From assembly GCA_016195185.1 (NCBI GenBank), contig JACQAA010000186.1:1-45222 (forward strand): DNA of 45,222 bases, in the 5' to 3' direction. Shown one piece after another: positions 31,392 through 32,996 of the stretch (position 1 is its first letter; every line of letters begins with the position of its first letter). Under the pieces are notes generated by a model that did no database searches, was not told the DNA's origin, and saw only the letters and a program-made list of their open reading frames with translations. The stretch is from Pseudomonadota bacterium (GTDB lineage: Bacteria > Pseudomonadota > Alphaproteobacteria > Micavibrionales > UBA2020). A program made the position numbers and the translations under genes.

Positions 31392-32996
31392 TCATTTCTC
31401 CATGAGGGCAATACAGGTTTCCAGACCGCGCCGCACGTCCGGCGAGAGGGTCCTGTCCTGATTCAATCGTGCCTTGGCGACACCGATGGCGTCAAGCCCG
31501 TTCAAATAAGTGACCGGACAGCCATTATACAGGGTCGAATAGGTTTCTCTCGTCAGCACATGCAGGGCGGTACCATCATAAAACTTTAACAACACCTCCA
31601 CGGCCTTCACGCGACCCATCGCGGCGGCGGCGGTCAAGGGCGTCCAGCCACTGCTATTCGGCACGTCGATTGTCATGCCTCGGGCAAGGCCGGATTTAAT
31701 CTGTTCCTCAATCTCGTCATCCAGCGACCATTTGGCGATATATTGCGCCAGAGTTGAGCCATGGGCACCGGAGCGCTCATTGAGCCCCTTCGTCCCCTTG
31801 CCGGACAGCCAATCAAGCGTCATCAGCCGCCCTGTTAGGGGGGAAGCGGGCGCGGCAATGTTAAACGCCGTATCCCCTTTCTGGTCTGCTTGATGCGGAT
31901 CAGCCCCGGCAGACAGCACCATCTCAACCATGCTTTTGACTTCGAGGCCCTGCGCTTCCGCCGCGGCCAGATAATGCAACACTGTCCAGCCCGGATTCTT
32001 GTCGGGCAGCACCGGCAGCGCCTGCACCAAATCAATATCATTGGCTCCCGTCACCAGCATCACCAGCCGATCCATACCGAGGGCATTGCCGCTGCACGGT
32101 TTTAAACCAAACGCGAGCGCCTGTAAAAAATCCTCATCGACCGGATAATCGGCGCCATAGAGCTTTTTGCGCAGGGAAATATCGTGCAGGAATCGCTCGC
32201 GCTGAATCTTCGCATCCGCCAGCTCGCCAAAAGCATTGGCCAGCTCGATGCTGCAGATATAGACTTCGAAACGCTCGGCAAAGCGCGGATCTTCCGGCTT
32301 GGGGCGCGCCAGCGCCGCCATCGAGACCGGGTAATCGGTGAGGATTGTCGGCACCGGCGAGCCGATACGCGGTTCCACCTTGTCCATGATAATTTTCAGC
32401 AGCGCGTTTTCCCAGTCATCCTGCGGTGACAAATAAACACCAATCCGCGCCGCCTCTGACTGAATATGCGCCAGATCACCGAGATTGTTTTCGATATCGA
32501 CACCGGCATATTTTTTAAGCGCCTCGACGACTGTGAGAATTTCCCACGGCTGGTGCGGATCGCAGTTCTTTCCGTCAAAGACGATAGGGTTTTGTGCCAC
32601 TGCGCGTATCAGCTCAATCGTCTCCTGCATCATGGCCCGGTAATCCATACCGGTCTGATACCACTCCAGCAGTGTAAAGTCGGGGCTATGCAGGCGGGAC
32701 GGCGCTTCATGACGAAAGACCTTGGCCAGCTGATATATTTTGGGCAACCCCGCCACGAGCAATTTCTTCATGGCAAATTCAGGGCTGGTGTGCAGATAAA
32801 ACGTATCGGTGCGGAATGCCTGAAGATGCGGCTCCATGCAGGGGCTGGCCTGCAGGGCGGGAGTATCGACTTCCAGATAGTCGCGGCGGTTAAAGAAATC
32901 CCGCACGGCGGAAAAAATACGCGCCCGCGCCTGCAAATAGGGGAGTTTTTTGGCCAGACGCTCGGGATGCCATGAATCTGTCACGTGATTGTTCAC
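31392..32996 (-). CDS. epmA: EF-P--(R)-beta-lysine ligase EpmA (PoxA/GenX) fused to a C-terminal ankyrin-repeat domain (534 aa)
   Basis: Residues 1 to about 335 form a class II aaRS-like core: FYLHTSPEFAMKKLLVAG, FRHEAPSRLHSPDFTLLEWY (motif 2) and GNALGMDRLVMLVTG (motif 3). Residues from about 340 to 534 contain ankyrin repeats (WTVLHYLAAAE...VLSAGADPHQADQKGDTAFNIAA; GWTPLTAAAAMGRVKAVEVLLKF). It is one continuous ORF. Confidence 0.85.
   Translation of the reverse strand: MNNHVTDSWHPERLAKKLPYLQARARIFSAVRDFFNRRDYLEVDTPALQASPCMEPHLQAFRTDTFYLHTSPEFAMKKLLVAGLPKIYQLAKVFRHEAPSRLHSPDFTLLEWYQTGMDYRAMMQETIELIRAVAQNPIVFDGKNCDPHQPWEILTVVEALKKYAGVDIENNLGDLAHIQSEAARIGVYLSPQDDWENALLKIIMDKVEPRIGSPVPTILTDYPVSMAALARPKPEDPRFAERFEVYICSIELANAFGELADAKIQRERFLHDISLRKKLYGADYPVDEDFLQALAFGLKPCSGNALGMDRLVMLVTGANDIDLVQALPVLPDKNPGWTVLHYLAAAEAQGLEVKSMVEMVLSAGADPHQADQKGDTAFNIAAPASPLTGRLMTLDWLSGKGTKGLNERSGAHGSTLAQYIAKWSLDDEIEEQIKSGLARGMTIDVPNSSGWTPLTAAAAMGRVKAVEVLLKFYDGTALHVLTRETYSTLYNGCPVTYLNGLDAIGVAKARLNQDRTLSPDVRRGLETCIALMEK

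Follow-up and report, generated by a model that had tools for sequence, protein, structure and literature searches.

Here we describe a fusion of EpmA, the ligase that modifies elongation factor P (EF-P), to a C-terminal ankyrin-repeat module, encoded in a 45,222-nucleotide stretch of DNA (contig JACQAA010000186.1 of assembly GCA_016195185.1, hereafter the window) from an alphaproteobacterium of the Micavibrionales. The gene, epmA-ank (31392..32996), is a single uninterrupted reading frame of 534 codons on the minus strand, with a GTG start at 32996 and a TGA stop at 31392-31394. The reading that we favour, with evenly balanced confidence, is that its product is a functional EF-P-(R)-beta-lysine ligase carrying an acquired five-repeat ankyrin docking module, in a group of Micavibrio-related, ankyrin-rich Alphaproteobacteria. 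The initial annotation of this DNA had held that no EpmA with a protein-interaction extension has been described, and our literature search, which covered EpmA-ankyrin, EF-P-ankyrin, Micavibrio-ankyrin and EpmA domain architecture, likewise found no EpmA with an appended domain.

The N-terminal part of the protein keeps everything that defines EpmA in sequence and fold. A class II aminoacyl-tRNA synthetase-like catalytic core spans residues 6-329 (32010..32981, minus strand), with Pfam tRNA-synt_2 on residues 20-329 (E 3.9e-49), and it passes both NCBIfam models of the family, TIGR00462 (genX/EpmA) at 352.1 bits against a cut-off of 286.9 and NF006828 (EpmA equivalog) at 280 bits against 264. 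Identity as a lysyl-tRNA synthetase (LysRS) was considered and rejected: the LysRS models give 241 and 219 bits against cut-offs of 468 and 428, about half of what is needed, with alignments that begin no earlier than LysRS residue 170. Models for aspartyl- and asparaginyl-tRNA synthetase score far under their cut-offs. The top sequence matches in the PDB are Salmonella YjeA and E. coli GenX (3g1z, 3a5z, 3a5y; E ~1e-53, residues 6-324) at 36-39% identity; the alignment to 3a5z and 3g1z begins at residue 6, and there is no N-terminal OB-fold anticodon-binding domain. The core of the AlphaFold2 model superposes on the GenX structures with target-normalised template modelling (TM) scores of 0.87-0.92 and a root-mean-square deviation of ~2 Å.

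The catalytic motifs are equally well preserved. Motif 2 reads VFRHEAPSR (residues 93-101, nt 32694-32720), the ERFEVY...ELANAFGEL block lies at residues 240-259 and motif 3 reads SGNALGMDR (residues 302-310); together with the TSPE block, HSPDF and LEWY, the FRHE of motif 2 and both other elements are kept in the alignments to GenX/YjeA structures. The profile scores and structure alignments bear out what had initially been read from the letters, namely that the EpmA core is complete and keeps motifs 2 and 3. Within motif 3, A305 aligns with A298 of E. coli EpmA, described as the gate through which the enzyme prefers (R)-beta-lysine to alpha-lysine (bioRxiv 10.64898/2026.07.07.736966), and Ala is invariant at this position in 27 aligned sequences. 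The protein is in these respects like EpmA (GenX, PoxA, YjeA) of E. coli and Salmonella (3A5Y, 3A5Z, 3G1Z), with a LysRS-like class II core that lacks an anticodon-binding domain, motifs 2 and 3, the lysyl-adenylate pocket, the (R)-beta-lysine Ala gate and an accompanying lysine 2,3-aminomutase-like gene. Among the EpmA family features that can be judged by sequence or fold, it departs from the family only in not being single-domain (534 residues rather than ~325): canonical EpmA and the unfused relatives shown stop 0-14 residues past the LVQAxPV motif, whereas the window protein continues for ~200 further residues as an ankyrin solenoid.

The ankyrin module (31395..31985, minus strand) comprises residues 338-534, 197 residues in five helix-pair repeats. 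Pfam ankyrin models exceed their thresholds (Ank_2 36.2 against 27.3, Ank 34 against 21.1, Ank_4 32.1 against 22.7), with matches that cover only repeat 4 (residues 437-473). AlphaFold2, run on the full-length protein from a 139-sequence alignment, gives a mean predicted local distance difference test score (pLDDT) of 94.8 and a predicted TM score (pTM) of 0.86, and places five helix-pair repeats in residues 339-533 at pLDDT >90, with a beta-hairpin insert at residues 486-497; the module modelled alone reaches a pLDDT of 96.2. The Pfam repeat and the five modelled repeats agree with the C-terminal ankyrin extension first proposed for 31395-31985. Between the core and the first ankyrin helix lies an eight-residue linker in the LPDKNPGW region (residues 330-337, 31986..32009, minus strand), predicted to be ordered (pLDDT ~93), through which the core and the module are predicted to form a rigid arrangement; the whole-chain pTM is, in our judgement, higher than would be expected of independently placed domains.

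The sequence signatures of the module are FNIAAPASP..GRLMT..W, SG.HGSTLAQYIAKW and SGWTPL.AAAAMGR. When its fold was searched against the PDB, the top matches were all ankyrin proteins, either designed or generic, at TM scores of only 0.45-0.55, which suggests that the solenoid is atypical. Matches this generic and this low were rejected as a source of hints to a binding partner, and no PDB entry in the fold search spans both the core and the ankyrin domain.

The same two-domain architecture recurs well beyond the window. In a protein search across 5.8 billion clusters, 23 more at the 90%-identity level showed this architecture, giving 24 with the window protein. The 23 clusters are 521-548 residues long (apart from one N-terminally truncated fragment of 473 residues), are 65-74% identical over their full length and derive from ENA, NCBI, JGI and Logan assemblies. 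One of them bears the name 'EF-P lysine aminoacylase GenX [Alphaproteobacteria bacterium]'; public annotation, which gives only 'EF-P lysine aminoacylase GenX', does not flag the fusion. One metagenomic contig would not by itself exclude an assembly or sequencing artefact that joined two separate genes, but nothing speaks for one; we assign it virtually no probability, and it is refuted by these data: clusters from other projects and assemblers share the continuous open reading frame (ORF) and the conserved junction, the alignment of the fused proteins is gap-free at the junction and across the C-terminal region, the DNA of three related loci (L001, L040, L041) reads in frame through the junction, and no homopolymer occurs at the junction in the window. 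Continuity of the ORF in independent assemblies, which had been named at the outset as a check on the fusion, is confirmed by the 23 clusters and the DNA of these three loci. Nor is the fusion a common EpmA subfamily, the other concern raised there: it is rare, with 24 clusters at 90% identity and only one when 1.84 billion representatives at 50% identity are considered, and it is confined to uncultured Alphaproteobacteria, the unfused relatives being labelled Micavibrio sp., Rhodospirillales or Alphaproteobacteria.

Selection acts on both halves of the protein. Ratios of non-synonymous to synonymous substitution (dN/dS; Nei-Gojobori) among four fused genes are 0.09-0.15 for the core and 0.15-0.31 for the module, rough values given that dS is near saturation, and both parts are clearly under purifying selection. 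The fused gene also occurs in at least two genomic contexts. In the window and in L001, a purine-catabolism cluster is followed by epmA-ank and a DMT_6 gene; in L040, L041 and L042, the order is a DUF6782-like array, epmA-ank, an HSP70-like gene and arginase, with deoxyhypusine-synthase-like and ornithine decarboxylase-like genes further downstream.

Judged from its sequence, the module was copied from a free-standing ankyrin protein specific to the lineage. A search with the module alone retrieved a discrete family of free-standing proteins of 200-250 residues (P0121-P0186), 45-63% identical to it over ~97% of the module. One hit, P0122 (215 residues), is a fragment of a fused protein rather than a free-standing one, and it is the only form in which this search listed the fused proteins; the full-length P0002-P0024, whose modules are ~60-65% identical to the query, did not appear. 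The family has 31 invariant columns in common, all present in the window protein, and the invariant residues that lie outside the generic ankyrin consensus are FN.AA...P..G..T..W, SG.H.S.L.QY..KW, N..GWT, an R and three Tyr around the hairpin. In the window protein, H368, W396, H412, Y419, K422, W423, W451 and R462 are among the invariant residues. The module thus shares with free-standing proteins such as P0142 the five repeats, the hairpin insert and the 31 invariant residues; these proteins differ in being encoded by separate genes that are not near epmA, and many of them have an extra N-terminal segment of 25-40 residues that is missing from the fused proteins. A family profile run against the 1.84 billion 50%-identity representatives found ~15 single-stretch clusters (235-292 residues), the one EpmA-fused cluster and P0310, the remaining matches being giant generic ankyrin proteins. 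P0310 (499 residues) is a second, independent fusion, in which a divergent module (residues 270-478) stands behind a 270-residue N-terminal region without a Pfam match.

The free-standing genes sit in varied neighbourhoods. P0142 lies directly after lon in a tig-clpP-clpP-lon cluster, and it comes from a metagenome-assembled genome labelled Micavibrio sp. (CAZNRN01) that also encodes an unfused EpmA (L005). P0161 and P0184 adjoin clpX-sufE-hisS, while P0121, P0133 and P0124 are near citrate synthase (gltA) and P0180 is elsewhere. The lon/clpX/sufE/hisS neighbourhoods are found at L033 5602-8726, L043 4685-8415 and L044 2328-8711, a placement that may reflect conserved synteny or point to a connection with proteolysis. 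One of the free-standing genes there starts 3 nt past the lon stop. Two follow a glutamine-synthetase-like gene, one overlapping its 3' end by 34 nt and the other ~2.3 kb further down the same run of genes.

More local sources of the module were also considered. Five ankyrin-containing genes, epmA-ank included, occur in the 45 kb of the window, and the genome is ankyrin-rich in the way that genomes of host- or prey-associated bacteria typically are. The other four form two tandem pairs (15575-16375 and 16405-17139; 26791-27393 and 27417-28100). The initial annotation had drawn attention to nearby ankyrin proteins, and these four genes substantiate their presence; the two that were compared with the module by BLASTP (26791-27393 and 27417-28100) are unrelated to it, showing generic single-repeat similarity only, and neighbouring genes were rejected as its source. 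Fusion of adjacent genes was rejected as well: unfused epmA is followed by DMT_6 or arginase, with no ankyrin gene there, and the free-standing members lie elsewhere.

The history of the fusion appears to combine capture and loss. In a neighbour-joining tree of the module region with 100 bootstraps, the fused modules all fall into a single clade nested in the free-standing family (75/100), which suggests that the module was captured once. Fused proteins were monophyletic in 0/100 replicates of the EpmA core tree; instead, unfused P0025 grouped with fused P0003 and P0010 in 99/100, and it is 90% identical to P0003. The contig of P0025 (L039) has the synteny of the window, running from urate oxidase to ureidoglycolate lyase-epmA-DMT_6, and compared with the fused genes the ~590-nt module is absent as one clean gap. 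With an unfused orthologue this close and the gene order shared, a secondary loss of the module is probable, and the module is probably an accessory that the basic reaction can dispense with. More generally, the unfused EpmAs P0025 and P0026 (L006) resemble the fused proteins in their cores (77-90% identical) and in their gene order, ureidoglycolate lyase-epmA-DMT_6 or DUF6782 array-epmA-DMT_6, and differ in lacking the module; their stop directly abuts the DMT_6 start.

One capture followed by repeated loss would be the simplest reading of these trees, and spread of the 3' module by recombination is a possible alternative. P0025, P0026 and P0029 (L002), all close to fused genes, were verified to be complete unfused genes, whereas some other entries counted as unfused stand on contigs of 1-2 kb and are possibly truncated calls. 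The short tail of P0025 was also compared with the linker and with the 3' end of the module; the similarity was no better than that of shuffled sequences, the tail was rejected as an indicator of the direction of the indel, and loss is drawn from the trees alone. The cores themselves are of two kinds. Most unfused EpmAs of the lineage (P0031-P0120) have FRN[AC]EGS as motif 2, with the canonical Glu shifted by one position relative to the FRxE of E. coli and the window protein. Two fused proteins (P0022 and P0024) share this form as FRNAEGS and the other 22 have FR[DHNR]E, so the fusion spans both core types.

Further support for an EF-P-directed enzyme comes from a lysine 2,3-aminomutase-like radical SAM gene (29556..30572, plus strand) ~1 kb from epmA-ank, presumably EpmB, the supplier of (R)-beta-lysine. 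Its product scores 494 bits with TIGR03822 (cut-off 396) and 245 with TIGR03821, the EpmB model (cut-off 369, not reached); unlike in E. coli, it is of the alphaproteobacterial TIGR03822 type and not the TIGR03821 EpmB equivalog. Orthologues that are 52-56% identical adjoin epmA in more distant Alphaproteobacteria (L024, L026, L029), and in these same loci efp is adjacent, encoding a product with a PGKG lysine loop. By analogy, a Lys-type EF-P may be expected in the fused-clade genomes. We saw no epmC near epmA-ank and no second epmA in any related locus examined.

Taken together, we propose that the C-terminus of EpmA acquired a copy of a free-standing five-repeat ankyrin protein in one group of Alphaproteobacteria. 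The EpmA features of the core, the orthologous position of the gene and the nearby aminomutase gene suggest that the enzyme has kept its ability to activate (R)-beta-lysine and attach it to the lysine at the tip of the EF-P loop. The purifying selection, the retained invariant surface residues, the short ordered linker and the pTM of 0.86 point to a structurally integrated, putatively protein-binding domain. Such a module could serve as an accessory docking domain, bringing the ligase to the same cytoplasmic partner as its free-standing paralogues, or alternatively could stabilise or regulate the enzyme. In either case it would modulate EF-P modification rather than enable it, since at least one very close relative has lost it.

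Several observations weigh against this proposal. No efp was found in the window or in any examined locus of the fused clade, nor anywhere in L001-L017 and L032-L045, the gene being seen only in the distant relatives L018-L030. Gene neighbourhoods give no consistent link between the module and translation or EF-P, no free-standing family member stands beside epmA, epmB or efp in the six contexts examined, and the generic PDB matches of the module (TM 0.45-0.55) indicate no partner. The rigid placement of the module is drawn solely from the pTM and the pLDDT of the linker. Moreover, of the five core substitutions that seemed specific to the fused proteins, most are common to the unfused sequences nested among them and are clade markers; they were rejected as a sign of a domain interface.

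A more specific variant, which is possible though we doubt it, has the module recruiting substrate or pathway in cis by binding EF-P (OB domains II/III) or EpmB, raising the local substrate concentration or channelling beta-lysine; if the fusion is read as a Rosetta stone, the separate ankyrin proteins of sister lineages would do likewise in trans. It fits a fusion partner that is an enzyme with a protein as its sole known substrate, a module that keeps the invariant residues of the free-standing proteins and is placed rigidly on the core in the AlphaFold2 model, and the co-occurrence of P0142 with an unfused EpmA in CAZNRN01. Yet in their six contexts the free-standing genes are unlinked to efp, epmA and epmB, canonical EpmA needs no helper, and the 90%-identical orthologue does without the module. 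A broader and rather less likely version makes the module and its free-standing relatives a hitherto unrecognised component of EF-P beta-lysylation, or else a coupler to another conserved process, with Lon/ClpX proteolysis, near whose genes free-standing members lie, as one candidate; if true, the fusion would act as a Rosetta stone that points to a further EpmA partner or to another target of lysylation. About as doubtful as recruitment in cis is a simple passenger, in which an ankyrin gene landed 3' of epmA, the stop was lost and the two halves keep unrelated functions while merely being co-expressed. In its favour, the genome is ankyrin-rich with five such genes in 45 kb, the family has also been fused to an unrelated N-terminal domain in P0310, the fused state is patchy and can be lost, and the core has no substitutions specific to fused proteins. 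A passenger accounts less well for a fusion that persists across sequences 65-74% identical and across genome rearrangement, for the missing N-terminal cap segment of the free-standing proteins, and for the short ordered linker and the pTM of 0.86, which suggest structural integration.

It is improbable that the ligase has been retargeted, with the module recruiting a new substrate or a prey or host protein so that the enzyme attaches beta-lysine to some target besides EF-P instead of to EF-P itself, or works as an effector. Ankyrin repeats occur frequently among the effectors of host-associated bacteria, relatives are annotated as Micavibrio, a predatory genus, and the genome is rich in ankyrin genes. 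Against these considerations, the gene occupies the orthologous epmA position, no second epmA was seen in the examined loci, the catalytic motifs and the beta-lysine gate are canonical, and the N-terminus, read by eye with no predictor, has no signal-peptide-like stretch. The initial annotation had suggested a tether to something other than EF-P, or additional to it, with the ribosome, a second substrate and a host protein as candidates, and we found nothing in support of this; the module copies a cytoplasmic free-standing protein whose genes lie in housekeeping contexts (lon/clpX/sufE, gltA).

Appended domains are not foreign to aminoacyl-tRNA synthetases in general. LysX (NF002821), for example, is a LysRS fused to MprF, and like the window protein it joins a LysRS-type catalytic domain and a second functional module in one polypeptide. 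The window protein differs in scoring 193 bits with the LysX model against a cut-off of 742, and its appended domain is a C-terminal protein-binding repeat rather than a membrane transferase. Among small bacterial ankyrin proteins, the module can also be compared with Bd3460, the ankyrin immunity protein of the predatory bacterium Bdellovibrio (PDB 5CEC_B; PMC4686830), which ranks 36 among the fold matches at a TM score of 0.52. Designed ankyrins match at least as well, the sequences are unrelated, and an endopeptidase partner is absent here.

Within the window, epmA-ank is embedded in a tightly packed minus-strand operon. The ureidoglycolate lyase gene (33000..33503, minus strand) ends 4 nt ahead of the epmA-ank start and probably shares one operon with it, and the same gene order recurs in L001 and L039. 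On the other side, the ATG of a DMT_6/DUF486 membrane protein gene (31049..31390, minus strand) lies 1 nt past the epmA-ank stop; DMT_6 also directly follows unfused epmA in L006 and L039. The fused gene is appended to the downstream end of a purine-catabolism cluster (33000-44526) that encodes xanthine dehydrogenase subunits, XdhC, malate synthase, a membrane urate oxidase (PF06181), a PuuE-like deacetylase, OHCU decarboxylase, allantoicase and the ureidoglycolate lyase. A 98-residue ORF between the epmB-like gene and DMT_6 (30574-30870, minus strand) has one predicted hydrophobic helix and a Pro/Lys-rich tail (..KTPRPPENKPPQP) with diproline motifs; it has no Pfam match and no homologue in related loci, and may not be a real gene. 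Further away, a 1187-residue ORF without a Pfam match (23099-26662, minus strand) lies between a cytidine deaminase gene and an ankyrin gene pair. No RNA elements or tRNAs were found in the window.

Two kinds of gene recur around epmA in related loci and are absent from the window. A deoxyhypusine-synthase-like gene (PF01916; L001 13345-14400, L002 7048-8112, L040 14370-15446, L041 14393-15469) is found 1-4 kb downstream of epmA and is 85-90% identical from one locus to the next. Its presence near an EF-P modification gene is curious, since hypusine modifies the eukaryotic homologue of EF-P. The gene is flanked by an Orn/Arg decarboxylase gene (L002, L040, L041) and also by an arginase-family gene (L002, L041), and probably belongs to a polyamine cluster. 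Tandem arrays of DUF6782-like genes (L006 4444-7727, L040 6615-9832, L041 7502-9730; also L033 9118-10170 and L038 513-1400) stand immediately upstream of epmA in several relatives. They consist of two or three diverged paralogues of ~350 residues, 30-60% identical, with an HExxH-like motif (LDHELAH), and DUF6782 genes also occur near free-standing members of the ankyrin family.

EpmA is regarded as an enzyme of one domain and one substrate. An EpmA that carries a putative protein-binding domain maintained by selection suggests that some bacteria may scaffold, localise or regulate the modification of EF-P. The homologues that stand alone offer an immediate handle on the partner of the module, and the natural orthologues with and without it, 90% identical, offer a ready comparison. 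Should the module instead prove to be a passenger, the fusion would merely illustrate domain shuffling in ankyrin-rich genomes.

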